A DNA stretch of 64,000 nucleotides from an uncultured bacterium (GTDB lineage: Bacteria > Patescibacteriota > Minisyncoccia > Phycocordibacterales > UBA6065): assembly GCA_966243015.1 (NCBI GenBank), contig CBIMES010000001.1:298076-362075 (forward strand), written 5' to 3'. Below, in pieces: positions 2,567 through 53,549 of this stretch (position 1 is the stretch's first letter; every line of letters begins with the position of its first letter). The notes under the pieces are model-generated. The model saw only the letters and a program-made list of their open reading frames with translations, did not search any database and had not been told where the DNA came from. The position numbers and the translations under genes are program-made.

Positions 2567-3103
2567 TTAGACCCGCGGCCCGACGGGATCCTTTATTAGC
2601 TCCGTCTCAGTAAAGATTGCGCCGCTCTTCATGCGGAACCTCTCTTCGGTAAAGGTCTTCCCTGTCTCCCGAAAGCCCAGCTTCTTGTAAAAGGCAATCG
2701 CCCTGGCGTTATAGTTCACCACGTGGACAATCGTCGGCTTGAGTGGGTCAAGATTTTCCCTCGCCGCCTCCCAGAGCGCCTTGGCCACACCCCTCCCCTG
2801 AAATTCCGGCAAGACGTACATGGCCTGAAGCTGATTGTGCTCGGGCCGGACGAAGACCCGACACAGGCCGACAGCCCTTCCGTCGATCTCCGCGACGAAA
2901 TACCAGCCGCCCTTTGAGCGAGTGTCGGCAATGCTCTTCTGAGACCTCTCGATGCTCGCGGGAGACTTCCTCTCGCCGAAATGCGCCTCGATGTCCTCGA
3001 GGGTTATGCCGTGCTCGGCGTTCGGGTACGTGGCGACCCAGGTGATATAGAAGATGTCGCTGAGCTGGGATGCATCTTCGGGTCGCGCTTCTCGGATGTT
3101 CAT
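2567..3103 (-). CDS. GNAT family N-acetyltransferase
   Basis: 178-aa protein with a GNAT core pattern (..VAEIDGRAVGLCRV..; QGRGVAKAL acetyl-CoA binding motif). Confidence 0.8.
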   Translation of the reverse strand: MNIREARPEDASQLSDIFYITWVATYPNAEHGITLEDIEAHFGERKSPASIERSQKSIADTRSKGGWYFVAEIDGRAVGLCRVFVRPEHNQLQAMYVLPEFQGRGVAKALWEAARENLDPLKPTIVHVVNYNARAIAFYKKLGFRETGKTFTEERFRMKSGAIFTETELIKDPVGPRV

Positions 3104-3112
3104 AGTTTTGAA

Positions 3113-4918
3113 TTATTTATAGTCCTCGGCCTGAAGCGCGAAGAGTCGGGCGTAGGTTCCCTTTCGGGCAATGAGCTCATCGTGCGATCCCAACTCTTCG
3201 ACGGCGCCGTCTTTGAACACGCAGATTCTGTCCGCCTTACGCACGGTTGAGAACTTGTGCGAGATGAGCACGACGGTCTGGCCGCCCGTGAGGGATTCTA
3301 TCTTCTCGAAGATGCGCATCTCGGCCTCTGCGTCGATTGCGGCAGTTGGCTCATCGAGAATCATGAGGCCCGCCTTGCGGTGGAAGAGTCGCGCAATGGC
3401 AAGGCGCTGCTTTTGGCCTTTTGACGGGTCAATACCGCCGTCGAACTCGACGCCGAGCATCTGGTCGTACTTGTCCTTCCATTCCAATATAAAGCTCTCG
3501 GAGTCGCTCGACTGCGCGGCCTCGACGACGCGCTCGAGGCTCATCGGTTCGCCTGATCTCCCGAGGGAAATCGCCTCTTTTACCGGGAAATTGTACGAGG
3601 CGTATTCCTGGAAGAGGACGCCGAGGTTCCTGTACCACTCGTCGAGGTCGATCTCCCTCAGATCAACCCCGTCCACGAGAATGCGGCCCTCGGTCGGGTC
3701 ATAGACGCGACAGAGCAATTTCACGAACGTCGTCTTGCCCGCGCCGTTCTCACCCACCAGGGCGAACTTCTCGCCAGGATTGAGGGTCAGGGATATGTTC
3801 CTGAGAATCATCTTTCCAGAGCCGGGATACGCGAAAGAGACGTTCTCGAAGGTGATGGTCGGGGTCTTGTTCTTGTTGATCGCGACAGGGTGCGCCGAGC
3901 GATACAGAGTATTCTCCGTATCCAAAATCTGGAAGAGGTTGTCCGCGTAGGTGCTGCGGTCCTGCTGATGCGAGAGCTGGTTCAGGAAGCCTATGAGCGC
4001 AGACTGGAAGCGATCCATGGACGAGAGCAGGAAGAGCATGGTTCCGACCTCAATCAGGCCAATGGATACGCGATAGACGATGAAGATGACGGTTCCGCCG
4101 ACAATCGCGCCCAAGATGAGTGTCGAGCCCGCCTCGAAGGCGAGCTTTTTCTTCTCGACGACCTTCTGCCTGTCGCCGAAAGTTCCCAGTATACGTGAAA
4201 TATGAGCAAAGAAGTGCCCCACGTTCTGGAAGAGCTTGAGCTCCACGAGCCACGTTCGACTGTTGAAGTACGATCTGATATCCTCGTAGCGTCTGCGCAC
4301 GGCCGTATCCGCGTCCCAGATGCCCCAGGCCTCCTTGCCGTACTTTATTTGGGTGATGAATCGCGGAATCACGGCAAGGGCAACCAAGAGGCATACGACC
4401 CAGTTGAAGCTCGCGAGGATGACCATGGCCGTAACGACCTGGGTAAGATCCCTCAGGATGTTGAACTGGATCTCCGACATGTTCACGATCGGCCACACGT
4501 CCCGATCCTCGGCCTTGTTTATCAAGTCCTGGAAGGCTGGGTTCTCGAACTGTTGAATGTCCATCGACGCCTTCTTCTTGAGATAGAGGAGCTGGAACGC
4601 CTTACCCAGGTCGATGTAGTTTCGCTTCTCGAAGTACTCTCGCAGGCTCGACACGATGTCGGGCAGGAAGAGCGTCAGGGCAAATGCTCCGGCGAGCAGA
4701 AGAATCAGGCGCGGCGCATAGTCGCCCGCCACGAGCGAATTCACGAGCGCGGCAGAGATGCCCGACTGCGCAAAGGGGAAAAGCGCCAGGAGAATCGACG
4801 TTGTGACCATGCCGATGACGACAGGCTTGTCATGCTCCCAGGCGAACAGGGCGACCCTCCAGCTCGTCACGAGAACCTTCTTGAAGGAGGCGTATTTTGA
4901 GGTGGTTGTGGTGCTCAT
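3113..4918 (-). CDS. ABC transporter, fused permease/ATP-binding protein (type I exporter)
   Basis: 601 aa with an N-terminal 6-TM domain. Walker A GENGAGKTT, ABC signature LSKGQKQRLAIAR, Walker B LMILDEPTAAID. Confidence 0.85.
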   Translation of the reverse strand: MSTTTTSKYASFKKVLVTSWRVALFAWEHDKPVVIGMVTTSILLALFPFAQSGISAALVNSLVAGDYAPRLILLLAGAFALTLFLPDIVSSLREYFEKRNYIDLGKAFQLLYLKKKASMDIQQFENPAFQDLINKAEDRDVWPIVNMSEIQFNILRDLTQVVTAMVILASFNWVVCLLVALAVIPRFITQIKYGKEAWGIWDADTAVRRRYEDIRSYFNSRTWLVELKLFQNVGHFFAHISRILGTFGDRQKVVEKKKLAFEAGSTLILGAIVGGTVIFIVYRVSIGLIEVGTMLFLLSSMDRFQSALIGFLNQLSHQQDRSTYADNLFQILDTENTLYRSAHPVAINKNKTPTITFENVSFAYPGSGKMILRNISLTLNPGEKFALVGENGAGKTTFVKLLCRVYDPTEGRILVDGVDLREIDLDEWYRNLGVLFQEYASYNFPVKEAISLGRSGEPMSLERVVEAAQSSDSESFILEWKDKYDQMLGVEFDGGIDPSKGQKQRLAIARLFHRKAGLMILDEPTAAIDAEAEMRIFEKIESLTGGQTVVLISHKFSTVRKADRICVFKDGAVEELGSHDELIARKGTYARLFALQAEDYK

Positions 4919-5010
4919 AGAGGCAGTTTGTTTGGTGCCCTTAAGTATACGCTGGACTTTCCATTCTGGACAATTGATGTTTAAATTGCGGTCACGCCGA
5001 CCACACTCCC

Positions 5011-6015
5011 ATGAAAAAGAAGCGCCCCAATCCCCTCCTCCCGAAAATGCTCCGTAAAATCGCCCCGCGCATCGGTGCGAAGGTTACGATCGAGCCTGAA
5101 TGGGGCGTCGTGGGCCAGATAACCTTCAAGAGTGGGAAGAAAAGCTATTTCAGATACTCGACCCTCGACCTCAACCCCGTCGGCTCGTCAGATATCGCCA
5201 AGGACAAGGACTATGCCAACTTCTTCATGAAAAAGCTCGGGTACCCTACCGTTCCCGGCAAGGCGTTCTATTCGCCCGACTGGGCACGGGCAATCGGCTC
5301 ACACCAGTCCACGAAGCCCGCGGCGACATACGCACAGAAACTCGGCTTCCCCGTCATCATCAAACCGAACAGTGGCAGCCAGGGGTCAGGAGTGCGCCTG
5401 GTACACAACAAGAAGGAATTCTTCTCGGGACTCCGTGACATATTCAGGAAAGACCGCGTCGCCCTCGTGCAGACGCCCGTTCGAGGCAAGGACTATCGCA
5501 TCGTGGTACTCGATGACAAAGTGATATCAGCATACGAGCGCGTGCCGCTGAGCGTCATGGGCGACGACAGGACAACGATCCTCGGCCTCCTCAAGAGGAA
5601 ACAGGCATCGTTCGTCGCATCGAGCAGGGACACCGTACTTAACATACGCGACAGGCGCATCGCCGCGAAGCTCAAGCGGGCCGGACTAACCGTGAAATCA
5701 ATTCCGGCCAAGGGCGAGCAGATCTTCCTGCTCGACAACGCGAACCTCTCTACGGGTGGCGACTCAATCGACGTCACGAAAGTGATTCACCCCGAATTCA
5801 GGGACATCGCCGTGCGCCTGACCAGAGACATGGGCCTACGTATCTGCGGCGTCGATCTCATGGTATCGGGCGATATCTCGGAAAAGCCCGTCACGTACTG
5901 GGTGCTCGAAATAAACGCGGCACCAGGCCTCGACCATTACGCAAAATCAGGAAAGGCCCAAGAGAAGATCGTAGAGGAGTTGTACCTGGAGGTTTTGAGG
6001 AGTTTGAATAAATAA
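5011..6015 (+). CDS. Stand-alone ATP-grasp ligase related to the cyanophycin synthetase (CphA) ATP-grasp domain
   Basis: KDYRIVVLDDKVISAYERVP, DNANLSTGGDSIDVTKVIHPEF and LEINAAPG closely parallel the CphA ATP-grasp motifs KGNDYRVLVV, RATANLSTGGTAIDRTDDIHPEN and EVNAAPG. There is no Mur-ligase domain. Confidence 0.75.
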   Translation: MKKKRPNPLLPKMLRKIAPRIGAKVTIEPEWGVVGQITFKSGKKSYFRYSTLDLNPVGSSDIAKDKDYANFFMKKLGYPTVPGKAFYSPDWARAIGSHQSTKPAATYAQKLGFPVIIKPNSGSQGSGVRLVHNKKEFFSGLRDIFRKDRVALVQTPVRGKDYRIVVLDDKVISAYERVPLSVMGDDRTTILGLLKRKQASFVASSRDTVLNIRDRRIAAKLKRAGLTVKSIPAKGEQIFLLDNANLSTGGDSIDVTKVIHPEFRDIAVRLTRDMGLRICGVDLMVSGDISEKPVTYWVLEINAAPGLDHYAKSGKAQEKIVEELYLEVLRSLNK

Positions 6016-6146
6016 GAACACGACCTTGGAAGAGATGAGGACCTTGATTCGGCCCATAAAAGCTAGCGTGGAACCACCTTCGAGCGAAACACTTCCCCGG
6101 CTCTAAACGGTTATACTACGACGCACAGAAGTCCGAGCTGACAAAA

Positions 6147-6171
6147 AATCGGCCCAACTAGTGGGCCGATT
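6147..6171 (-). terminator. Terminator hairpin (aatcggcccaactagtgggccgatt) flanked by an A-run and TTT; bidirectional candidate
   Basis: 8-9 bp GC stem. The a6 run before it gives a U-tract on minus, immediately after the small minus ORF that ends at 6182. Confidence 0.4.
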
Positions 6172-6181
6172 TGAAACGAGC

Positions 6182-6385
6182 TTAAGAGCGAGCAATCAAG
6201 ACACAAGCCACAAAAACAAGAATCGCTAATGCATCAATCAGGACGAGGAAGCGAATAAGCCTCTTCCCCTCCGAAGATTGATAAAAGGCAATCTTGTCTT
6301 CCGCATATTTCTTGAATCCGCCCGGATAATTTTGAGCAACGACGAGCTCAAGCCGCATCGTTGCAAGAGCCATATTGGTTATCAT
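6182..6385 (-). CDS. Small tail-anchored membrane protein (67 aa), hypothetical
   Basis: ORF with a C-terminal TM helix (LIRFLVLIDALAILVFVACVLIA) and a terminator directly downstream. Lies in the transition zone to the low-GC island. Confidence 0.35.
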   Translation of the reverse strand: MITNMALATMRLELVVAQNYPGGFKKYAEDKIAFYQSSEGKRLIRFLVLIDALAILVFVACVLIARS

Positions 6386-6546
6386 GGTACAAAGAATTTA
6401 GCATCAAAATAACACTTAAAGTAAATAACGGCAACTCTTTGACATAATTATGAAAAATACGTAAGGTTATGCAGAATCAGTTCTTTCACATCGTAGGATA
6501 GGTATCCATACAATCAGGAAGAGCAACAAAACCCAATCCGTCCCCA

Positions 6547-7677
6547 GTGACGCCAATAACCATGAATCAGGAAATTATGTCATCGGAGCGGCTGAAAGCC
6601 TCTCTTGCTATTCCGGACCTAACGGATCCACGGAATGGAATTCACGCGATAAACATTATTATAGAAAAAATCGTGACTGCCATGAAAAAAGGCAATCCCG
6701 ATTCCTCTATTGAAGAAATCCGGGGGGATCCGAGAGTGTCGATCAAGGATAATTTCGACGACCTCTTGTTTCCAAAAGACAACGCGGGCCGATCCTCCCG
6801 ATACACTCGATACGTATCTGAAGACACTGTCCTCAGAACCCACATGTCATCCGCAGCGCCCTCATGGCTCAGAAAAAGATCAGCAGACCGAGCCCAAGAC
6901 ACAATCGCCATTTTTCCAGGGATGTGCTACCGCCGCGATGTTGTCGACAGGACGCATTGCGGAGAACCTCATCAAATGGATATATGGCGTATCAAAAGAG
7001 GAGGTCGGCGCTGTGACAGAAAGGCGTTGATAAAGACAATAGAAACAGTCCTTGGCGCCGTCGTTCCTCAGTTCCAATATCGAGCCAACGAAGTCAGACA
7101 CCCTTACACGATTAACGGCCTCGAGGTCGAGATTCTTGTAAATGATACGTGGCTTGAAATTCTAGAGTGCGGTGAAATACACCCAACCGTGCTCATGAAC
7201 GCAGGTCTTGATCCTGATGAATATTCAGGGCTCGCTCTGGGAATGGGTCTCGACAGACTGGTGATGGCCCTTAAGAGAATCGACGATATCAGAATCCTCA
7301 GGTCTCAAAACCCGAGAATTAAGAAACAGCTGATGAACCTTGAGCCATTTGTCGTCACGTCAAATCAACCAGCCGCAAAACGGGTTATCTCCTATTCAAC
7401 CTCTGTTAAAGAAACAGAGGAAGATACATGCGAGAAAATTCGAGACGGCCTTGGAAAAGATGCCGTCTTCCTGGAGCAGATAGAATACGCGGAAACCCCC
7501 TACGAGGAACTGCCGGAGAAAGCCCGCCTTAACCTCGGCATCAAGCCCGACCAAAAGAACGTGGTGGCCACGATCACGTTTCGATCAATAGACGGTTCCC
7601 TGGCCCGCCCCATGGTAAACAATTGGATAGAGACGCTCTACCCAAAACTCAACCAAGGCAGCAAAGGCTACATCTAA
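6547..7677 (+). CDS. Monomeric phenylalanyl-tRNA synthetase-like class II aaRS (PheS-type catalytic core plus C-terminal FDX-ACB-like domain, mitochondrial-type architecture)
   Basis: FDDLLFPKDN...VLRTHMSS...FPGMCYRRD...HQMD...WLEILECGEIHPTVLMNAGLDPDEYSGLALGMGLDRLVMAL matches the PheRS-alpha motif 2/3 region (RTHTS, PGRVYR.D, WLEVLGCGMVHPNVL..GIDPEVYSGFAFGMGMERL). The C-terminal ~100 aa (..NVVATITFRSIDGS..) resembles the ferredoxin-fold anticodon-binding domain. Low-GC gene. Confidence 0.7.
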   Translation: MTPITMNQEIMSSERLKASLAIPDLTDPRNGIHAINIIIEKIVTAMKKGNPDSSIEEIRGDPRVSIKDNFDDLLFPKDNAGRSSRYTRYVSEDTVLRTHMSSAAPSWLRKRSADRAQDTIAIFPGMCYRRDVVDRTHCGEPHQMDIWRIKRGGRRCDRKALIKTIETVLGAVVPQFQYRANEVRHPYTINGLEVEILVNDTWLEILECGEIHPTVLMNAGLDPDEYSGLALGMGLDRLVMALKRIDDIRILRSQNPRIKKQLMNLEPFVVTSNQPAAKRVISYSTSVKETEEDTCEKIRDGLGKDAVFLEQIEYAETPYEELPEKARLNLGIKPDQKNVVATITFRSIDGSLARPMVNNWIETLYPKLNQGSKGYI

Positions 7678-7691
7678 AACCCCTGGCAGCA

Positions 7692-7729
7692 AAGGGTCGC
7701 ACAGAATTATTCTGAGCGACCCTTTTTTA
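7692..7729 (+). terminator. Rho-independent terminator for the PheRS-like gene
   Basis: aagggtcgc...gcgaccctt stem followed by ttttttat. Confidence 0.55.
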
Positions 7730-7738
7730 TCATATGAA

Positions 7739-7761
7739 AGCCCCTCACTTTCATGAGGGGC
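7739..7761 (-). terminator. Terminator hairpin for the convergent minus-strand operon (after the LysRS-like gene)
   Basis: gcccctca cttt catgaggggc; the minus-strand reading continues with tttcatatgataaaaaa. Confidence 0.45.
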
Positions 7762-7780
7762 CGATTGATTTGCGAAAAAC

Positions 7781-9226
7781 TTAAAAAACAGGAAAAAGTT
7801 CCACGTCCCTAATATCTCTCGCATTGAGAAGAAGCATGAGAAGTCGCTCAATCCCCATGCCGATACCTCGGCACGGCGGCAGTCCAAATTCCATGGCACG
7901 AATTATGCTTTCGTTAACATGTCCTTGTTCTGCCTTTCCGTATTTAGCCTGTTCCTCCATGCTGCGACGGATAATAACAGGGTCACGCTCCGGATTCACG
8001 ATGTCAGCAACGAGCATGCCGTTGATGACAAGCAGAGTCTCGTCAACGGTTGAGCCGTCGCCGTTCCCCTTGAAAAGGGGCGACTGAGCCGCGGGCAGCC
8101 CCCTCAAGAACGTGGGGGTCGTGATGCCCGACACGATGTGAGCATACAAAGAAGTCGATACGGTATACCTGTTTACCTTAGCGGGACGAGGTATACCGAT
8201 TGCATCAAGCAAGACAGCCAGCTCTTCGACCGGACGAGATTCGTCATATCGAAAACCTGTCAACCTTTCAATCTCCTCAGCATAATCGCACACAGTCCAA
8301 CTACCAGAACAGTCAATCACCCCATCCGCCACAGGCAAACTTGCCGAACCATACAGCTCACGAAGGATTTCACACAGCAGATCCTTTATAAGCCCCTCCA
8401 TCTCTTCCCGGCTCGCATATGCGCGATACAGTTCAAGAATAGTGAAGTGCGGCAAGGTGCTCGATGTCGCCCCTTGGTTTCTAAACGATTTTCCAATTTC
8501 AAAGACCCTTGATAAACCACCCACCATGAGCTTGCGGAGAAGAATCTCAGACGTAAGCCTGAGATACATGTCCCCGGTTTGATCAACGGAACGAGTGACA
8601 AACGGATCCGCAAGACCTGCCTCAAAACTATTTTGAAGTAGGCCCATATTGAGCTCCTCGTAACCACGAGCGTAGAGAAACTGTCTAAGCACCCTAAATA
8701 TCGTGGAGCACCTGCGAAAGTGCAGAACCATTTTCGGGTCCCGAATAAGCTGAAGATATCTATATTCGCTTACATTTGATTTCTTTCGAAAATCAATGTT
8801 TGAATCGTAAACATCACCCGTCGCCTTTGAAAGCAGACTTATTCGGTTGGCGAAAAAGATCGAGGTTCCAAGATATTTTTTCTTAACCCCGCACAACGCA
8901 ACCACATCTCCGTAATGAATCAGCGAATTAACAACATCGATATTGTCTTGATTTCGCACAAGGAAAGCGGCAACCGAGCAGCCGTTCCCCTCAAGCCTCT
9001 CCAAAACGATAGCATCAACACCATCAACCGCCTCAAACACACCCAGTCGTGATTTTTTTGTAAGCGGGTCAGAAAGCATAATTCTCCCCACTATAGTTAT
9101 TTCGCTTTCAAAAGGCGCCCGCTCAAAGTCGGAGGCCTCGATACAACCCATTGGCGCATCTTTTTGATACACAAACGGGTCCTTTTCTAAGGCACGAAGC
9201 CTCTTTCCATTGCTATTTTTAGCCAC
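7781..9226 (-). CDS. Lysyl-tRNA synthetase-like class II aaRS (divergent; last gene of the island operon)
   Basis: YLRLTSEILLRKLMVGGLSRVFEIGKSFRNQG (LysRS motif 2, compare [34 protein letters not shown]) and C-terminal GIGMGIERLLMLLLNARDIRDVELFP (motif 3). AAGGAG SD 6 nt upstream and a TTGACA -35-like hexamer. Low GC. Confidence 0.85.
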   Translation of the reverse strand: MAKNSNGKRLRALEKDPFVYQKDAPMGCIEASDFERAPFESEITIVGRIMLSDPLTKKSRLGVFEAVDGVDAIVLERLEGNGCSVAAFLVRNQDNIDVVNSLIHYGDVVALCGVKKKYLGTSIFFANRISLLSKATGDVYDSNIDFRKKSNVSEYRYLQLIRDPKMVLHFRRCSTIFRVLRQFLYARGYEELNMGLLQNSFEAGLADPFVTRSVDQTGDMYLRLTSEILLRKLMVGGLSRVFEIGKSFRNQGATSSTLPHFTILELYRAYASREEMEGLIKDLLCEILRELYGSASLPVADGVIDCSGSWTVCDYAEEIERLTGFRYDESRPVEELAVLLDAIGIPRPAKVNRYTVSTSLYAHIVSGITTPTFLRGLPAAQSPLFKGNGDGSTVDETLLVINGMLVADIVNPERDPVIIRRSMEEQAKYGKAEQGHVNESIIRAMEFGLPPCRGIGMGIERLLMLLLNARDIRDVELFPVF

Positions 9227-9299
9227 AATGACTCCTTTTCTTGTTTTTTATGTTAATGAACTAAGGTTTCCGTAACATTGATACAAAACAATAAAAGTG

Positions 9300-9842
9300 T
9301 CAATTACCCTTCTTGAAGATATCGTACTTAAAATCCTTGTGTGTCATTGACGGCCGAGGACCAATGCTGTTCTGATACTTCCCCTTGTAGAGAGAGATCT
9401 CGCCAAAAGGAACCCAGAAGCTTACCTGCGCGATAGACATTCCTGGATAGATACGAACAGGAAGGGTTGCGTAGAGTTGAAAGGTCGTAACCCCATGAGA
9501 TCCTATATCAATCAAATCAGCGGTAACGTGAACAAAGAGACCCATCCTAGCCGTGCCGGACTTTCCGTGTATCAACGGAACATAAAAATCGCTACCGATA
9601 CGCTCCCTGGAGTGCCCCAGAACAAAGTCACCTGCCTTAAGAACCAACCCATCTTCAGGTATTCGTATCTCTTCGTAAACTGCCTCGTGCTTAGGATCAA
9701 TGACACCCGGTCCATATCGGATGACAGTGTCGCCAAGCGACAAATCATAAGAATTGGTCGTGACCGACTCTTCATTAAACGGAACTATCTCTATCTTGTC
9801 ACCCCGAACTTCCTCGAGGATTTTTTTACCCGTAAGTATCAT
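9300..9842 (-). CDS. dCTP deaminase/dUTPase-family protein, paralog 2 (Gln at the position aligning with the catalytic Glu)
   Basis: GKSGTARMGLFVHVTADLIDIG...PGMSIAQVSF aligns with Dcd GRSSLARLGLMVHVTA...PGMLIGALSF. It has ..TTFQLY.. where the upstream paralog has ..TLEIV... The start ATG overlaps the upstream stop (ATGA). Confidence 0.8.
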   Translation of the reverse strand: MILTGKKILEEVRGDKIEIVPFNEESVTTNSYDLSLGDTVIRYGPGVIDPKHEAVYEEIRIPEDGLVLKAGDFVLGHSRERIGSDFYVPLIHGKSGTARMGLFVHVTADLIDIGSHGVTTFQLYATLPVRIYPGMSIAQVSFWVPFGEISLYKGKYQNSIGPRPSMTHKDFKYDIFKKGN

Positions 9843-10357
9843 GGGGCTTTTTGTTTAGCGGTTGGTACATATGACTCCTGGGGATGATTCAGACGACCGT
9901 ACACTCCCACGTAAGAATCAATAGGCCCGAAGTTTTTCCAGAATGAAACTTGGCCAATCACCATTCCAGGATAGACCCTTATTGGCAAGGCGGCCACAAT
10001 CTCAAGGGTCCACCTATGCATTGAGGTGGTGTGGCCAAGATTTGCAGAGACCTGCAAAAACAAGCCGTATCTGCCCATCGAGCTTCTACCAATAAGAGAC
10101 ATGGCGTATTCCGAGCTCCCGATAATCTCTTGAGTGTTCGCGAGATACATCCGGCCCGGCTCTAGTACATACCCCTCTTGGGGAATGGACAACTCTTTAA
10201 AGACGGACTTGCCACCATCGAAGAAAACAAACTCTTTCAAAGTGGGACCCAGGCGGTAATTGTAGCTATTGGGATTAATTTGTTCAGGCAAAAACGGCTC
10301 AATGACTATCCTTTTGCCAGCAATCTCTTCTTTTATTTTTGCCCCAGTCAGAATCAT
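9839..10357 (-). CDS. dcd: dCTP deaminase-family protein, paralog 1
   Basis: MILTGAKIKEEI..., GRSSMGRYGLFLQVSA, WTLEIV (catalytic Glu context), PGMVIGQVSF. Confidence 0.8.
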   Translation of the reverse strand: MILTGAKIKEEIAGKRIVIEPFLPEQINPNSYNYRLGPTLKEFVFFDGGKSVFKELSIPQEGYVLEPGRMYLANTQEIIGSSEYAMSLIGRSSMGRYGLFLQVSANLGHTTSMHRWTLEIVAALPIRVYPGMVIGQVSFWKNFGPIDSYVGVYGRLNHPQESYVPTAKQKAP

Positions 10358-10360
10358 AAC

Positions 10361-11182
10361 TTAGAATAGTTCCACGAAACGATTCGGATAGATGTCTTTC
10401 CTATACCTTAAGACAAGCGTACTGTATCTCTGATAAGGCCTCAATTCATTGGACATCTTTTTGATATCGTAGAGCCGGTTATAAATCGCCTTACGGACCC
10501 CGGCATCATGGATGCCGAGCATAATGCAAGCTCTGTCCGTCGTGCACTTACAATAATAATCGAGCTCTTCCTTTGTTTCTGGAATAAGATCGTTTCGATC
10601 CTCGAATATGATCTCAAGCTTATTGTAGAGTTTCATAATTTCCTTGTAGGACACGGACGTCGGCGTAATCCCAAAAACCTTTCTAGCTTTTTTAATTAAG
10701 GTGGCCGGGATTGTCTTGGTTACGTAGAAAGGTGAGGCGAGTATATAACCACCGTCATCAAGCATACCAATACACTTTTCAAGCATCTTTGATGGATCAG
10801 GGAAAAAGCCGAGCGAGGCTCCCACGACGATATGACTGAAAGGCTCATTCGTCGAAAATTCATACCCATTCGCAACTCTGTATGAAAATTTTACACCAGG
10901 AGCGTATTGATCCTTATTGTAATTTGCCATTTTTACAGAATTTTCCGACAGATCGAAACCCTCCCCGCTGCAACCAGACATAATAGCAAGTTCCCGAGAG
11001 GAAAAACCCGTTGTACACGCAACCTCAAGAAGTCGTGAGGTTTTTTTCAACCCCGAAAACTGAGCCCACTTAGAAAGTGTGACGTATGATCCCGGCAAAA
11101 CATTCCACTGATTAATCAATCCGACAAAATCAGTGTAGGAGAGATTTTTTACATAGTCTGAGGTAATCGTGTTATTTTTCAT
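10361..11182 (-). CDS. Class I SAM-dependent methyltransferase
   Basis: Motif I LEVACTTGF and an acidic motif II. 273 aa. AGGAA upstream. Confidence 0.8.
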   Translation of the reverse strand: MKNNTITSDYVKNLSYTDFVGLINQWNVLPGSYVTLSKWAQFSGLKKTSRLLEVACTTGFSSRELAIMSGCSGEGFDLSENSVKMANYNKDQYAPGVKFSYRVANGYEFSTNEPFSHIVVGASLGFFPDPSKMLEKCIGMLDDGGYILASPFYVTKTIPATLIKKARKVFGITPTSVSYKEIMKLYNKLEIIFEDRNDLIPETKEELDYYCKCTTDRACIMLGIHDAGVRKAIYNRLYDIKKMSNELRPYQRYSTLVLRYRKDIYPNRFVELF

Positions 11183-11194
11183 GTTTCCTTTACC

Positions 11195-12400
11195 CTAAAA
11201 TTCGTATACAGGCGGTATTGAGCTTATAAAATTCTGCGCCAAAGAATAAGTTAAGGCACCTTGATTCGGCACCACAATAACATCCCCCTCCCTCAGTCGA
11301 TCAGCATAGCAGAGATAGCCCCAAATATCCCAAGTGGTACAAAGGTTGCCCCACACGCGACAGCTAATCTCACTTTTTGCCGGCATCGATATATTTACCA
11401 ACGGAAAATACTCGTGCTCGAAGCGCTGCCAACCAACCATGTTAACGCCTGCGTCCAGGATAATATTTGACTCATCCTTTTTATCAGCAACGCGAGCGAC
11501 TATAAGCATAGAGTTGTTGCATATAAAACGACCAGGTTCCGCACGATATTGGGCGTCGATTAAGGGCTCAAGATCCTTCTTTATTGCATCGCCTATCTTT
11601 TGAGCGTACTCAGCGATCTCCAGACTTTCCCTAACTCGATAAGAACCCTCAACGCCCTTTACATCGCCAGAAGAATAATAACCCTCCGATCGAGAAACCT
11701 CGAATCCGCCACCAAAATCAACGTACTTGATAGAACGAAGGTCCTCGACACTAAAATTCAGCTTAATAAAAAGCCCTATTTTTGAAATAGCGTCCTCATA
11801 AGAGGATGCATCCTTGTTTCTTGAGGTGTGAAAATGAATGCCTTCAAGCTCAATAAACGGATGTCGTTTTGCCGCATCCCAAAACTCGCCAAGCCTCTCA
11901 AGGGGGATGCCGTATTTTTTCCAATCGCCGAAAAGATCCACGTGAACCCTAACTCCCGCCTTTATCTTTAAACCCGAGGCCGACGTCAATGATCCAAGCG
12001 TCTCCAGTTCACTAAAACTATCCATGTTAACAGTCACCATATCAGAATACTTGAGTGCATGCGCAAGATCCGCTCTTGTCTTGCCTGGACTGAAATACAT
12101 AATATCCTTACAGCCCGCCGCAACAGCGAGGTCTATTTCTCGGACACTACCGACATCGAGACCCATACCCCGCTCAACAACACGAGCAATCACTTTGGGA
12201 TGATGATTGAGTTTAAGCGCATAATAAGCCCTAAAAGAGGCAACCTCCTTGTTGAAAGCATCTAAAAAAGAGCTTATGGAAGCATCGAGGGCCTTCATAT
12301 CAAGAGCATAGAAAGGCGTTCCGTGCTTCTCAACAAGCTCAAGCAACGAATCTCGCTTCTCGAGCACATCTTCTACGATATGATACAGTCCGGTACTCAT
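11195..12400 (-). CDS. Fold-III PLP-dependent decarboxylase (Orn/DAP/Arg decarboxylase family; LysA-like or MccE-N-like)
   Basis: YALKLN (PLP-lysine motif), DFGGGF, EPGR. The start overlaps the upstream stop by ATGA. Confidence 0.85.
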   Translation of the reverse strand: MSTGLYHIVEDVLEKRDSLLELVEKHGTPFYALDMKALDASISSFLDAFNKEVASFRAYYALKLNHHPKVIARVVERGMGLDVGSVREIDLAVAAGCKDIMYFSPGKTRADLAHALKYSDMVTVNMDSFSELETLGSLTSASGLKIKAGVRVHVDLFGDWKKYGIPLERLGEFWDAAKRHPFIELEGIHFHTSRNKDASSYEDAISKIGLFIKLNFSVEDLRSIKYVDFGGGFEVSRSEGYYSSGDVKGVEGSYRVRESLEIAEYAQKIGDAIKKDLEPLIDAQYRAEPGRFICNNSMLIVARVADKKDESNIILDAGVNMVGWQRFEHEYFPLVNISMPAKSEISCRVWGNLCTTWDIWGYLCYADRLREGDVIVVPNQGALTYSLAQNFISSIPPVYEF

Positions 12401-13416
12401 ATAACGGATTTCTCAAATACGATCGACGCCTCTTCGGTATCGATAGCGACCGTGCCGCCGTTCGGTATGGTAATAAGCGGATCCGAGTGTCCAAAATCAG
12501 CGTTGTACATAACAGGAAAAGTGGAAGAGCCGAGATTCTCCCCGAGAATCTCTTCGAACGAGTCGTCTCGAGAGAAGCCAGACTGTTCCGTAAACCTACC
12601 GAAGACAAGACCCGATATGGCCTCAAACCACCCCAGCTGCTTACACTGGCAAAGGAATCTATCGACGTGGGCAGGGGTGCTTGTCTCGTCCTCTTCCAGA
12701 AAAAGAATCTTACCTTTCAAATCGGGCATATATTCCGTCCCCTGAAGCAGAAGCAGGGTTTGAAGATTTCCAACGAGAACCTCTCCCGCTGCGCTTCCGG
12801 CCCTGAAGACCTTAACGCCCTCATTGGCCTTTTTAATCCTGTGGTCATTGTCTTCCCTGAGAAAGTATAAATCGTCAGCGTATTCCCCCGATGACTCAAT
12901 GGCAACCCTCTCTTTTGGAGAGACGCACATTTCTTCAAAGTACTTCCAGGTGTACCCAAAAGGCTCAGGCTTGGCGAAAGATATGACTCCGGGACCAGAG
13001 AAAGTAACGAGCCCGGTCTTGGTTGTGATAGCGGTAGTGAGGGCAGTTACATCAGAATAGCCGATAAATACCTTCGGATGCTTGCTAATTAGACCATAAT
13101 CAAGGCGATCGAGAATCTGATTGGTATTGAAACCTCCCCAGAAAGCCATAATGCATCCCACGTCTTCCCTTTCGAGGAACCTGTGTATGTCCTGAACCCG
13201 AAGATCAACAGACCCTGCAACATGCTTGTTGGTAAGGTTTTTAACAGACTCACCCTCAGCGATAACGAAACCTCTTTCTTCGAGATACTTGTAACCTCGC
13301 TGAATAGTCTCTTCTGGGCAGACGCCCGCAACCGGATCAGCAGGTGCAATAATTCCAATGGTCATGCCCTTTTTGAGCCTTGGCGGGAGTACTTTTCCTG
13401 ATTGATTTGACGACAT
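12397..13416 (-). CDS. S66 family LD-carboxypeptidase (LdcA/MccF-like serine peptidase)
   Basis: IGIIAPADPV N-terminus, nucleophile context FIGYSDVTAL, length 339 aa. First gene of the operon. Confidence 0.85.
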   Translation of the reverse strand: MSSNQSGKVLPPRLKKGMTIGIIAPADPVAGVCPEETIQRGYKYLEERGFVIAEGESVKNLTNKHVAGSVDLRVQDIHRFLEREDVGCIMAFWGGFNTNQILDRLDYGLISKHPKVFIGYSDVTALTTAITTKTGLVTFSGPGVISFAKPEPFGYTWKYFEEMCVSPKERVAIESSGEYADDLYFLREDNDHRIKKANEGVKVFRAGSAAGEVLVGNLQTLLLLQGTEYMPDLKGKILFLEEDETSTPAHVDRFLCQCKQLGWFEAISGLVFGRFTEQSGFSRDDSFEEILGENLGSSTFPVMYNADFGHSDPLITIPNGGTVAIDTEEASIVFEKSVI

Positions 13417-13794
13417 GAATTAAGGATAACCATAATTAACCAAAACCACAATAATAGCCGTCTCGAAACAAAAAAAACGGAACGATGTCCCGTCTCGCAA
13501 GCTCAATCTTGACCCATTTCCCCGTAGTCATGCCCGATCCCGTGCTAGAAAGAGCTCACGGTTCGATCATCATTGCCCAAACAGGTGTAGTCCACAGTCC
13601 CAGAAAGAGAATCAACTCCCCGCTTTTGATACCGCCCGCAGGCAATGATTACGAGAAGGAAGGCAATTTCAGCGGGTGCGATAATGCACAATAAATACAT
13701 TGTACTCATCGGTTGAAGGTGCGTTTTGTTTTCAAAAAGAATAACAAATAGACGTTCAAGAAGTTATAAAGATCTAATAAAAAAACTCTTGGCC

Positions 13795-39346: not shown

Positions 39347-41161
39347 TTACGAGAGCGTCGCCTTGATGCGTCGCACGCCAGCTGACACGGCCTCCTCCTT
39401 CTGGATCTTGAAGGTTCCGAGGGTTCCCGTGTTCTCGACATGAGGACCGCCGCAGAACTCTTTCGAAACAGCTGAACCCAGGTCATTGCCGATGTAATAG
39501 ACAGAGACGATGTCGCCGTACTTGTCGCCGAAGAAGTGAAGGGCGCCCGTCTGCTCGGCCTCTGCCTTTGGCATCTCGACGCGATGCACCGGAAGCTTCG
39601 CCTGAATGTTTGCGTTCACGATGTCCTCAACCCTCTTCTTCTCCTCGTCGGTCATTTTGGCGCCATGAGTGAAGTCAAAGCGAAGTCGCTCGGGAGTAAT
39701 GTTCGAACCCTTCTGCGATACGTGGGTACCAAGCACCTGGCGAAGGGCCTGATGGAGGAGATGCGTTGCAGTGTGGTACCTGAGAGACATCTCGGAGGTG
39801 TCACCAAGGCCGCCCTTGAACTTCTGCTCCGCGCCCGCGCGAGAGAGGTCCTGGTGCTTCTTAAACTCGGCGTCGAACGACTCACGATCAACGGCAAGGC
39901 CCCTCGCCTTGGCGAGCTCGATGGTCATGTCGATAGGAAATCCGTAGCTCGAGAACAGGGTGAATGCGTCTACACCTGAGACAGAGCCCGATACCTTTGA
40001 CACTATCTTGTCGAACTCCTTAACGCCCTGTTCGAGAGTCCTGCCAAACTTTTCAGACTCCTTGGCAATCTCATCGACGATAAAGGCTCGCTGCGCGTCC
40101 ACGTTCGGATATGCCTCCTTGAAGGTCTCGGCGAGATGGCTCACGAGCCTCTCGATCGACGATCGCTCGAACTTCTTCGCGTCGGTATTGAACACCATGC
40201 GCCTGATAATGCGGCGCAGGACGTATCCCTGGTCGGTGTTCGCCGGCACGACGCCGTCCGCAATCATGAAGGTCGCGGTGCGGATATGGTCGGAGATGAT
40301 GCGCTGTCGGCGGAGGTCGGACGCGAGGGTCGCGGCAATGGCCATAATCGGCGCGAAGATATCGGTATCAAAAACATTCGTCTTGCCCTGAAGGACTGTG
40401 CAGATACGCTCGTATCCCGAGCCGGTGTCGACGTTCTTGGTGGCGAGCTTGCCGATGATTTTGCCGTCGCGCTTCTCGAACTCCATGAACACGTCGTTCC
40501 ACACCTCCACGACCTTCTGAGCGTCGTCGGCAGCCTTGTACTCGGCCAGCGTCATGCCCTCGGTGAGAGTACCAGTGAGATCATAGAACATCTCCGAGCA
40601 CGGGCCCGTAGGTCCGGTCCAGGTGTCCTTGCCCTTCACTGCCGGCCACCAGTTCGAGTCGGCGCCGAGATAGTAGATGCGCTCGCCCGCCACGCCGTCC
40701 TTGGCGAAGAGATCCGCCCACACTTTCGCGGCCTCATCGTCGCGAGGGACGCCGTTTGCCTCGTCGCCGGCGAAGACCGTGACGTAAAGACGTCGTGGGT
40801 CAAGACCAAAGCCCTCGGTCTTTGAGGTGAGGAGCTCGTAGCTCCAGGTGATCGCCTCTTTCTTGAAGTATGATCCAAGCGACCAATTGCCCATCATCTC
40901 GAAAAAGGTCAGATGCGTGTTGTCGCCGATATCGTCGATGTCGCCGGTGCGAACGCACTTCTGGAAGTCGGCGAGCTTGTCGCCCTGGGGATGCGGTCGA
41001 CCCATGAGGTACGGCACAAGCGGCTGCATGCCGGCCGTGTTGAAGAGCACGGTCGGGTCGTTCTCGGGCACGAGAGGGGCCGATGGCAGGATGGCGTGGC
41101 CGCGCGCCGCGAAGAAGGCCAGGAATCGCTTGCGTACTTCTGCTGATGTCATAGTGAGCAC
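39347..41161 (-). CDS. alaS: Alanyl-tRNA synthetase, short form (catalytic + tRNA-recognition + editing domains; no C-Ala domain)
   Basis: N-terminal FNTAGMQPLVPY.., editing motifs HTATHLLH and FCGGPHV. 604 aa against about 870 aa for the full-length bacterial enzyme. Confidence 0.9.
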   Translation of the reverse strand: MLTMTSAEVRKRFLAFFAARGHAILPSAPLVPENDPTVLFNTAGMQPLVPYLMGRPHPQGDKLADFQKCVRTGDIDDIGDNTHLTFFEMMGNWSLGSYFKKEAITWSYELLTSKTEGFGLDPRRLYVTVFAGDEANGVPRDDEAAKVWADLFAKDGVAGERIYYLGADSNWWPAVKGKDTWTGPTGPCSEMFYDLTGTLTEGMTLAEYKAADDAQKVVEVWNDVFMEFEKRDGKIIGKLATKNVDTGSGYERICTVLQGKTNVFDTDIFAPIMAIAATLASDLRRQRIISDHIRTATFMIADGVVPANTDQGYVLRRIIRRMVFNTDAKKFERSSIERLVSHLAETFKEAYPNVDAQRAFIVDEIAKESEKFGRTLEQGVKEFDKIVSKVSGSVSGVDAFTLFSSYGFPIDMTIELAKARGLAVDRESFDAEFKKHQDLSRAGAEQKFKGGLGDTSEMSLRYHTATHLLHQALRQVLGTHVSQKGSNITPERLRFDFTHGAKMTDEEKKRVEDIVNANIQAKLPVHRVEMPKAEAEQTGALHFFGDKYGDIVSVYYIGNDLGSAVSKEFCGGPHVENTGTLGTFKIQKEEAVSAGVRRIKATLS

Positions 41162-50669: not shown

Positions 50670-53549
<2,880 letters not shown>

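Follow-up and report, generated by a model that had tools for sequence, protein, structure and literature searches.

A lysyl-tRNA synthetase paralog with a predicted remodelled active site, carried in a small mobile gene cassette of Patescibacteria

Introduction

The closest described relatives of the locus reported here belong to the microcin C, agrocin 84 and albomycin systems. MccF cleaves the aminoacyl-nucleotide amide bond, HIT hydrolases such as MccH offer a further route to immunity, and AgnA, a protein resembling aminoacyl-tRNA synthetases (aaRSs), is proposed to join the acyl moiety of agrocin 84 to its nucleotide through a phosphoramidate bond (PMC8323819). The roles that we give to the homologues of MccD, MccE1, MccF, MccH, AgnA and AgnB2 follow the same source. 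Here, we analyzed a 64,000-nucleotide stretch of DNA (the window) from an uncultured bacterium of the Patescibacteriota (GenBank assembly GCA_966243015.1, contig CBIMES010000001.1, positions 298,076 to 362,075), which carries a gene for a lysyl-tRNA synthetase (LysRS)-like protein, called LysS-like below, next to a gene for SrmL, a “PheS-related mystery ligase”. The data give good support to the view that the LysS-like protein represents a previously uncharacterised family of non-translational LysRS paralogs, which is a fixed part of a small mobile cassette and is found almost only in Patescibacteria. The kinds of components in this cassette are already known; the novelty lies in how they are combined and in the rebuilt active site of the synthetase.

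Comparison with the microcin C (mcc) clusters reveals a shared group of MccD, MccE N-domain and MccF homologues, which would imply aminopropylation and amide hydrolysis in an aminoacyl-nucleotide. However, the aminopropylation pair and the MccF-type peptidase are recognized by homology only, and the cassette lacks the MccA precursor, the ThiF-like MccB and the MFS exporter; it has two aaRS-like and two dCTP-deaminase (DCD)-fold proteins instead, and its hosts are Patescibacteria. Like the clusters that encode AgnB2 and AbmK, the resistance copies for agrocin 84 and albomycin, the cassette has an extra full-length aaRS-family gene embedded among biosynthetic and immunity genes, together with an MccF-like peptidase, an MccD/AgnB1-like S-adenosylmethionine (SAM) enzyme and, in a sister form of the cassette (type B), an AgnA homologue. 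Unlike AgnB2 and AbmK, the LysS-like family has lost conserved catalytic and anticodon-reading residues, does not appear from its sequence to be fully competent in catalysis, and is paired with a second aaRS-like gene. EpmA/PoxA, AsnA and AgnA likewise have LysRS/AspRS/AsnRS-type cores that have taken on a reaction different from tRNA charging, but these proteins have dispensed with the anticodon-binding domain and retain the ATP/Mg2+ site, whereas the LysS-like family does the reverse.

Results

A LysRS fold outside the curated LysRS family

Pfam detected a class II (D, K, N) tRNA-synt_2 core in residues 153 to 479 of the LysS-like protein (E 4e-46). Its scores against the NCBIfam LysRS models reached about half of the cut-offs, with 241.1 bits versus 468 for NF001756 and 212.6 bits versus 427.6 for TIGR00499, and the homologue in a second locus, L009, likewise fell below the curated LysRS cut-offs. 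The next-best families were the EpmA models (105 and 93 bits), but the score of 104.8 bits against TIGR00462 is well below the cut-off of 286.9, and an OB domain is present. We built an AlphaFold 2 (AF2) model on 39 homologues, which had a mean predicted local distance difference test (pLDDT) value of 84.5 and a predicted template modelling (TM) score of 0.83. The model consists of a five-stranded OB N-domain followed by the class II core, and it matched whole LysRS crystal structures (PDB 1E1O, 3A74, 5VL1) with a TM score of about 0.75 over about 500 columns. The LysS-like protein thus has a full-length LysRS fold, yet lies outside the curated LysRS family.

An earlier note on this DNA, made from the sequence alone, had described the N-terminal OB region as divergent, and this was borne out. 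Pfam gave no match to the OB anticodon domain PF01336, although AF2 predicted the OB fold with high confidence. In class IIb synthetases, conserved OB Arg, Phe and Gln residues read U35 of the anticodon. Only the strand-1 Gly-Arg is kept in the LysS-like protein; conservation is lost in the canonical Phe and Gln columns, and there is an insertion of about 15 amino acids.

A search of 5.8 billion proteins returned about 75 family members with 42 to 65% identity to the LysS-like protein and a length of about 482 amino acids (nearly all 481 to 486). Homologue scores dropped from at least 370 bits within the family (at least 42% identity) to at most 182 bits for true LysRS (about 30% identity). 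Across the family, identity to true LysRS was 22 to 30%, compared to 31 to 91% among LysRS of different phyla. NCBI names members of the family “amino acid--tRNA ligase-related protein”. With one genome taken per species, the family occurred at 8 loci in 185,579 species genomes, namely, in Saccharibacteria, Andersenbacteria, Uhrbacteria, a “Patescibacteria group” and three contigs of metagenome-assembled genomes binned elsewhere. The IMG/VR and INPHARED phage records contained no member, and carriage by phages or viruses was rejected on this ground. No curated family or structure covers these proteins, and literature searches on SrmL and on LysRS-/PheRS-like clusters yielded nothing relevant.

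Replacement of Mg2+ and ATP contacts in the active site

To compare active sites, 39 family members were aligned with Escherichia coli LysU and canonical LysRS (20, then 44 sequences; Table 1). Human LysRS provides the reference for two pairs of residues: Glu487 and Glu494 are its two class II-conserved Mg2+ ligands, while adenosine is bound by Arg323 and Glu325 (PMC9840234). Their LysU counterparts, matched by motif position, are E414/E421 and R262/E264, respectively, and both Mg2+-binding Glu residues are Leu in the protein from the window. The family has also lost the motif-1 Pro, and its motif-2 loop is variable and modelled with low pLDDT.

Table 1. Active-site positions (LysU numbering) in the LysS-like family and in canonical LysRS
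LysU residue	Role	LysS-like family	Canonical LysRS
E240	alpha-amino group	kept 39/39	44/44
R262	motif-2 Arg	kept 39/39	44/44
F274	adenine stacking	kept 38/39	44/44
E278, Y280	side-chain amine	kept 39/39	44/44, 43/44
E264	binds adenosine	Q 39/39	E 44/44
H270	motif-2 loop	M/T	H 43/44
N271	motif-2 loop	L/H/I	N 32/44
E414	Mg2+ ligand	L 37/39	E28, Q12, D3 of 44
E421	Mg2+ ligand	L/P 38/39	E 43/44
N424, F426	lysine pocket	D/T, V	N 38/44; F/Y 20/20
E428	side-chain amine	P/A	E 43/44
R480	motif-3 Arg	R 33/39, H 5/39 (type-B subgroup)	R 44/44

The earlier note had called motifs 2 and 3 clearly LysRS-type. This holds for the motif-2 Arg, the ELY signature and the motif-3 Arg, but not for the motif-2 Glu, the loop His and Asn, the motif-1 Pro or the Mg2+-binding Glu residues. 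The lysine pocket is kept in part, with E240, E278 and Y280 retained and N424, F426 and E428 changed, while E264, H270 and E421 are replaced family-wide as well. The family would thus have retained residues that hold amino acid, alpha-phosphate and base and replaced those for Mg2+ and the beta- and gamma-phosphates. Because new invariant residues have been gained (D395, E396, E413, R414, C/S452 and R453), the active site appears to have been remodelled under purifying selection and not to have decayed.

These replacements bear directly on one of two functions that the earlier note had offered, a self-resistance gene. In its general form, this explanation holds that the LysS-like protein confers immunity to a LysRS-directed toxin made by the cassette, either (a) as a competent, drug-insensitive LysRS like AgnB2 or (b) as a non-catalytic decoy that sequesters the lysyl-nucleotide warhead. 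The full LysRS architecture, including the conserved OB domain, and the retention of lysine- and adenylate-binding residues in 38 to 39 of the 39 members argue for immunity, as do the precedents of AgnB2, AbmK and the MetRS and AspRS genes in agn-like and mcc-like clusters (PMC8323819). A working, drug-insensitive LysRS is nevertheless a poor fit. E264, H270, E421 and E428, which are found in 43 or 44 of the 44 canonical enzymes, are all replaced; type B has His in place of the motif-3 Arg; the motif-2 loop varies and is modelled with low pLDDT; the canonical OB Phe and Gln are missing; and the LysRS models score at half of their cut-offs. The decoy model, for its part, is opposed by the new invariant polar residues C/S452, R453, E396, E413 and R414, which suggest catalysis, and we know of no earlier case in which an inactive aaRS serves as a sponge. 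In addition, Lys-type and Phe-type full-length aaRS-like genes in one cassette would require two targets. A classical resistant LysRS therefore seems unlikely, because three independent sets of determinants have changed (the ligands of Mg2+ and ATP, the loop of motif 2 and the residues that read the anticodon) and a second, Phe-type aaRS-like gene is present. The main rival to the function that we propose below is accordingly that the protein confers immunity, whether by sequestration or as an enzyme that remains active despite heavy remodelling. The retained full aaRS architecture and the precedent of AgnB2 speak for this rival, but we consider immunity in all its forms rather unlikely. The note's other option, an aaRS recruited for aminoacyl-nucleotide chemistry, is the better fit of the two.

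Horizontal origin and the housekeeping question

The LysS-like gene has a GC content of 0.483, compared to 0.57 in both flanks of the low-GC block that encloses it (Table 2), and the edges of this block coincide exactly with the stop codons of its neighbours. In locus L098, the closest relative found, genes for EamA, a purD-like protein, HisRS and a histidine kinase occur in the same order as in the window, with products that are 90%, 81%, 81% and 76% identical, respectively. The histidine kinase and HisRS genes are, however, 1.5 kb apart in L098 and 14.8 kb apart in the window, and the cassette block is missing from L098. Near other copies of the cassette, we found an IS200 transposase gene (L009) and a recombinase gene with defence-type genes (L086). 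A search for direct repeats and attachment (att) sites around the low-GC block returned only chance-level short repeats. The low-GC block, the empty site in L098 and the varied flanks of other copies agree with the earlier description of an extra, horizontally acquired aaRS-like gene within a biosynthetic or immunity-like cluster. L098 has a different, 6-kb insert (4143-9892) between EamA and the histidine kinase; it contains two possibly class I aaRS-like open reading frames (ORFs), one of them TyrRS/TrpRS-like with HVGH and KMSKS motifs read by eye, a P-loop-like ORF and others. The EamA-histidine kinase spot may be a hotspot for aaRS-like cargo.

The earlier note had also allowed that the gene simply encodes the only LysRS of the organism, which would have to owe its divergence to a fast-evolving candidate-phyla-radiation host. 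Consistent with this, the protein has a LysRS fold with a partly kept lysine pocket, and a tblastn search of the 64-kb window with three canonical LysRS gave no further class II lysS; nor was a canonical lysS seen in the flanks of 14 related loci. Yet its scores are half of the curated cut-offs, universally conserved catalytic residues are replaced, and the family occurs in only 8 of 185,579 species. The best non-self LysS-like homologue is just 65% identical, although the database holds DnaK relatives that are 90 to 98% identical; by its DnaK relatives, the organism is a Candidatus Paceibacterota bacterium. The syntenic site of L098 lacks the gene, whose GC content of 0.48 departs from the backbone value of 0.57. 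By contrast, the housekeeping AlaRS and LeuRS of the window give strong Pfam scores for their own families. From these comparisons, a role as housekeeping or only LysRS appears effectively excluded, and we regard it as highly improbable. The two housekeeping enzymes have peculiarities of their own: LeuRS carries a NUDIX domain (PF00293, E 8e-12) inserted at about residues 390 to 511, just past the editing domain, and the 604-amino-acid AlaRS ORF stops after the tRNA_SAD domain, so that the usual C-terminal part is missing.

Gene boundaries and transcription

The position of the LysS-like ORF given in the earlier note proved exact, and the gene is indeed the last of a same-strand run that leads from the S66 peptidase gene through those for a pyridoxal phosphate (PLP)-dependent decarboxylase, a methyltransferase-fold protein and two DCD-fold proteins and is followed by a hairpin (Table 2). 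Its low GC content, its place in one operon with tailoring-like enzymes and its own Shine-Dalgarno sequence, all noted earlier, were likewise confirmed. The GTG start is borne out by alignment of the N-terminus with those of 38 homologues.

Table 2. Features of the window and positions of the type-B cassettes in other loci
Feature	Position	Strand	Remarks
Low-GC block with seven-gene cassette	6016..13794	.	GC 0.464; bounded by stop codons of ATP-grasp and histidine kinase genes
SrmL, “PheS-related mystery ligase”	6547..7677	+	start probably 6562 (371 aa); NCBIfam NF051887, 389 bits vs cut-off 300
Two hairpins between the convergent LysS-like and SrmL genes	7691..7761	.	7691-7725, 17-nt arms, 94% complementary; 7740-7761, 8 bp, 6 GC
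LysRS paralog (LysS-like)	7781..9226	-	481 aa, GTG start; OB N-domain ~aa 40-135, class II core aa 153-479; active site probably remodelled
Shine-Dalgarno sequence GGAG	9235..9238	-	5 nt upstream of LysS-like GTG (sequence read)
DCD-fold protein 2	9300..9842	-	ID.G motif kept; catalytic Glu replaced by Gln (TTFQL)
DCD-fold protein 1	9839..10357	-	TLE kept; IDPGF motif lost
MccD/AgnB1-type SAM-dependent transferase	10361..11182	-	candidate 3-amino-3-carboxypropyl transferase, from homology to MccD
PLP-dependent decarboxylase, Orn/DAP/Arg family	11195..12400	-	MccE N-domain-like (Pfam, NCBIfam, alignment)
S66 serine peptidase, MccF type	12397..13416	-	first operon gene; score comparison, triad
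GNAT acetyltransferase	2567..3103		beside cassette
ABC exporter	3113..4918		beside cassette
ATP-grasp ligase, cyanophycin-synthetase/GshAB-like	5011..6015		beside cassette
AlaRS	39347..41161	-	604 aa
LeuRS	50670..53549	-	NUDIX insertion
Type-B cassette, L009	4139..12676		
Type-B cassette, L087	3582..12154		
Type-B cassette, L110	1319..10656		
Type-B cassette, L111	470..7522		begins at transferase (contig end)

The promoter-like elements mentioned earlier found only partial support. Within the 73-nt gap between the DCD stop and the LysS-like gene, the sole -10-like hexamer, TATCAA (9283-9278), lies 14 nt from a perfect TTGACA (9303-9298) that overlaps the DCD stop codon. This spacing is short, and a sigma-70 scan detected no site on the LysS-like strand in the gap (9227-9299), giving no support to a sigma-70 promoter of its own. 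Independent transcription of the LysS-like gene is still plausible, because the gene is detached from the operon in loci L086 and L089. The two hairpins between the LysS-like and SrmL genes, of which that at 7740-7761 is GC-rich, are likely to form a bidirectional terminator for both.

Cassette partners with homology to microcin C and agrocin 84 proteins

Several cassette proteins could be assigned by comparison with known biosynthetic and immunity proteins. The S66 peptidase scored 212 to 218 bits against MccF-like PDB chains (Lmo1638, BA_5613), 168 bits against Bacillus anthracis MccF and 150 bits against E. coli MccF, compared to 30 to 103 bits against murein LD-carboxypeptidases. Its alignment with E. 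coli MccF covers 335 amino acids at 32% identity; the Ser/His/Glu triad is matched, and the W186 position, or the one beside it, is occupied by an aromatic residue. The SAM-dependent transferase aligned end to end with E. coli MccD (26% identity over 259 amino acids, E 2e-29) and also matched the methyltransferase encoded next to agnA on pAgK84 (E 8e-22). When it was searched against 72,556 plasmids, only 42 records matched; the 25 matches listed were MccD-position genes adjoining GNAT-annotated mccE in mcc operons of Escherichia, Yersinia and Salmonella, and the others included five Agrobacterium records. The PLP decarboxylase is 22% identical to the MccE N-domain over 189 amino acids (E 1e-7). 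These neighbours, together with the AgnA homologue in the sister cassette type, point to aaRS-directed aminoacyl-nucleotide chemistry, as the earlier note had suspected.

SrmL, modelled by AF2 with a pLDDT of 90.8, has the single-chain architecture of mitochondrial-type PheRS, with a catalytic core and an anticodon-binding-type C-domain; its best fold match was human mitochondrial PheRS (3CMQ, TM 0.76). The class II catalytic residues of SrmL are invariant, whereas the FPF of the Phe pocket is invariantly HPY. The two DCD-fold proteins are tandem, overlapping paralogs with complementary motif losses, and they could form a hetero-oligomer with composite sites or have a role on a pyrimidine nucleotide other than deamination.

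Beside the cassette lie genes for a GNAT acetyltransferase, an ABC exporter and a cyanophycin-synthetase/GshAB-like ATP-grasp ligase (2567-6015). These have backbone GC, are not present in L098 and have no counterpart beside other cassettes; on GC and the missing counterparts, we rejected them as conserved cassette parts. They could be local accessories for export, immunity or ligation, or unrelated.

We also looked for further components. No precursor peptide or small ORF was conserved across the loci, although very short ORFs could escape this comparison; a 67-amino-acid ORF (6182-6385) was discarded as a precursor since it had no Pfam match and no counterpart elsewhere. Pfam lists for the cassette and the related loci contained no ThiF-family, MccB-like gene. 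An anti-phage function was dismissed after PADLOC left six of the seven cassette proteins blank and gave a weak methyltransferase-domain match for the seventh. An Rfam scan returned nothing beyond two distant tRNA-Ala genes, and an orthogonal tRNA/aaRS pair like pylS/pylT was set aside, there being no tRNA gene in any cassette.

The absence of these parts is relevant to a further explanation, in which the LysS-like protein modifies a macromolecule. EpmA is a LysRS paralog that aminoacylates elongation factor P (EF-P), and an EpmA-like ligase might add a lysine-derived, aminopropylated group to a protein or tRNA that is recognized through the OB domain and the SrmL C-domain. The EpmA models are the next-best family matches, LysS-like and SrmL both keep nucleic-acid-binding-type domains, and neither an exporter nor a precursor gene is conserved in the cassette. 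On the other hand, the EpmA score of 105 bits is far from the cut-off of 287, no cassette has a dedicated tRNA gene, and a rare, mobile, low-GC cassette near transposase and recombinase genes is unlike a housekeeping modification system. The MccF-type peptidase, a HIT hydrolase and the MccD and AgnA homologies point instead to nucleotide-linked small molecules, and we judge macromolecule modification to be improbable.

Conservation of the cassette across loci and the agn-like type B

The seven genes found in the window (type A) occur together in at least 10 independent loci with differing flanks. In L086 and L089, the order is rearranged, with the convergent LysS-like/SrmL pair placed upstream of the five-gene operon, and the pair therefore moves as a unit. 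Of 14 informative loci, 13 have SrmL and the LysS-like gene side by side, and only L013 does not. A HIT hydrolase gene directly follows the cassette in L086.

SrmL also occurs without a LysS-like gene, in L092 and in L094, where it lies beside a radical-SAM gene. The homologue in L092 is the best scorer on the NCBIfam model (455 bits) and belongs to a large cluster (1-21125) with an extra PheS, an S51 peptidase, GNAT and NUDIX proteins, ATP-grasp ligases, a Mur ligase, a B12-radical-SAM enzyme, a kinase and a nucleotidyltransferase. S51 peptidases are a family reported to give microcin C resistance. SrmL is mostly convergent with a second class II aaRS-like gene, either LysS-like or, in L092, the extra PheS, an arrangement that hints at a heteromeric pair. 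Flanking type-A cassettes, we noted a second SrmL copy in L012 (2987-4099) and, in L096 (17551-18693), a mitochondrial-type single-chain PheRS-like protein that scores just under the SrmL and pheS_mito cut-offs. In L096, an XRE-type helix-turn-helix gene lies ahead of the S66 gene, and L110 has one in front of its AgnA-like gene.

Four loci carry the second cassette type, type B (Table 2). Here, genes for an AsnRS-core-only protein, an S-adenosylmethionine decarboxylase (AdoMetDC; PF02675), an MccD-type transferase, a CN-hydrolase, a carbamoyltransferase and an S66 peptidase are followed by the LysS-like gene convergent with SrmL. The type-B transferase is 29% identical to MccD over 261 amino acids (E 2e-36), and the AsnRS-core protein is 32% identical to AgnA of pAgK84 over 340 amino acids (E 3e-47). 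pAgK84 itself has an MccF-like gene (agnC5), and its resistant LeuRS gene, agnB2, directly follows the MccD-like methyltransferase gene. By these homologies, type B appears to connect the cassettes of Patescibacteria with the agn (agrocin 84) genes on pAgK84. Between the two types, the PLP decarboxylase and transferase are swapped for AdoMetDC and transferase, which would be expected to supply the same aminopropyl group in another way; from this swap, we infer that aminopropylation is a conserved cassette function.

LysS-like proteins of type B bear the signature E421P, N424T/M and R480H. Forecasts of cassette type from this signature were correct for both further members looked up, and the signature also fits L087 and L009. 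The immunity explanation draws support from type B on two counts: the cassette mirrors the agn layout (AgnA-like, MccD/AgnB1-like, S66, then the aaRS-like gene), and the pocket co-varies with the set of tailoring genes, as would be expected if it bound the final product.

Discussion

We propose that the LysS-like protein is a dedicated, non-translational component of a microcin C/agrocin-like aminoacyl-nucleotide cassette, where it would bind a lysine-like aminoacyl-nucleotide and transfer or tailor it; as a reading of sequence data, we give this proposal an even chance of being right. According to this model, the product of the cassette is an aminopropyl-decorated aminoacyl-nucleotide of the microcin C/agrocin 84 type, made with neither a ribosomal peptide nor MccB, and the cassette also shields its host from this compound. 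The aminopropyl group would be installed by the transferase and PLP decarboxylase in type A or by AdoMetDC and the transferase in type B, and the S66 peptidase would act as the self-immunity hydrolase. SrmL, joined by the AgnA-like core in type B, would carry out ATP-dependent activation and ligation. The LysS-like protein would bind a lysine-like aminoacyl-nucleotide and not ATP-Mg, because its grips on the amino acid, alpha-phosphate and base are kept while the residues for Mg2+, the beta- and gamma-phosphates and tRNA reading are lost. It would then perform or support an aminoacyl-transfer or tailoring step on the nucleotide scaffold and would not charge tRNA-Lys.

Several observations weigh against this proposal. 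Biosynthetic aaRS paralogs such as AsnA, AgnA and EpmA usually shed the anticodon-binding domain; the LysS-like protein keeps its OB domain and SrmL its anticodon-binding-type C-domain, which fits tRNA-binding or immunity roles better. The acidic residues E396, D408 and E413 remain near the lost ones, so that metal or ATP binding is possible by sequence. The links to MccD, MccE, MccF and AgnA are homologies at 22 to 32% identity and not orthology, and the co-variation of pocket signature and cassette type may merely reflect the common descent of two clades. The two DCD-fold proteins find no place in the scheme, and no exporter gene is among the conserved cassette parts of the loci compared. 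Finally, a full-length aaRS gene in a known aaRS-inhibitor cluster is normally a resistant target copy, as with AgnB2 and AbmK (PMC8323819).

A more far-reaching version of our proposal, which we put forward tentatively and hold to be somewhat unlikely, is that LysS-like and SrmL stand for a third way of making aaRS-directed aminoacyl-nucleotide antibiotics, one that needs neither MccB nor the ribosome. It would be a microcin C/agrocin 84 hybrid on a mobile cassette of Patescibacteria, in which the full-length synthetase, rebuilt to lack the canonical Mg2+ ligands, acts on an aminoacyl-nucleotide and not on ATP. Lys-tRNA or the adenylate of the partner protein is one possibility for the donor in such a route.

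Bacteria of the candidate phyla radiation have tiny genomes with very few recognised secondary-metabolite clusters. If our proposal is true, a conserved, mobile, aaRS-directed cassette would suggest that these episymbionts engage in chemical warfare or defence and would add new biosynthetic logic to the microcin C/agrocin 84/albomycin group of Trojan-horse aaRS inhibitors. For students of aaRS evolution, the LysS-like protein would be a natural experiment in class II active-site re-engineering, with the metal and triphosphate contacts swapped out, and annotators should not count the family as LysRS when scoring genome completeness or aaRS complements. For natural product research and candidate-phyla-radiation biology, the cassette also supplies genomic context and testable partners for NCBI's mystery ligase SrmL.

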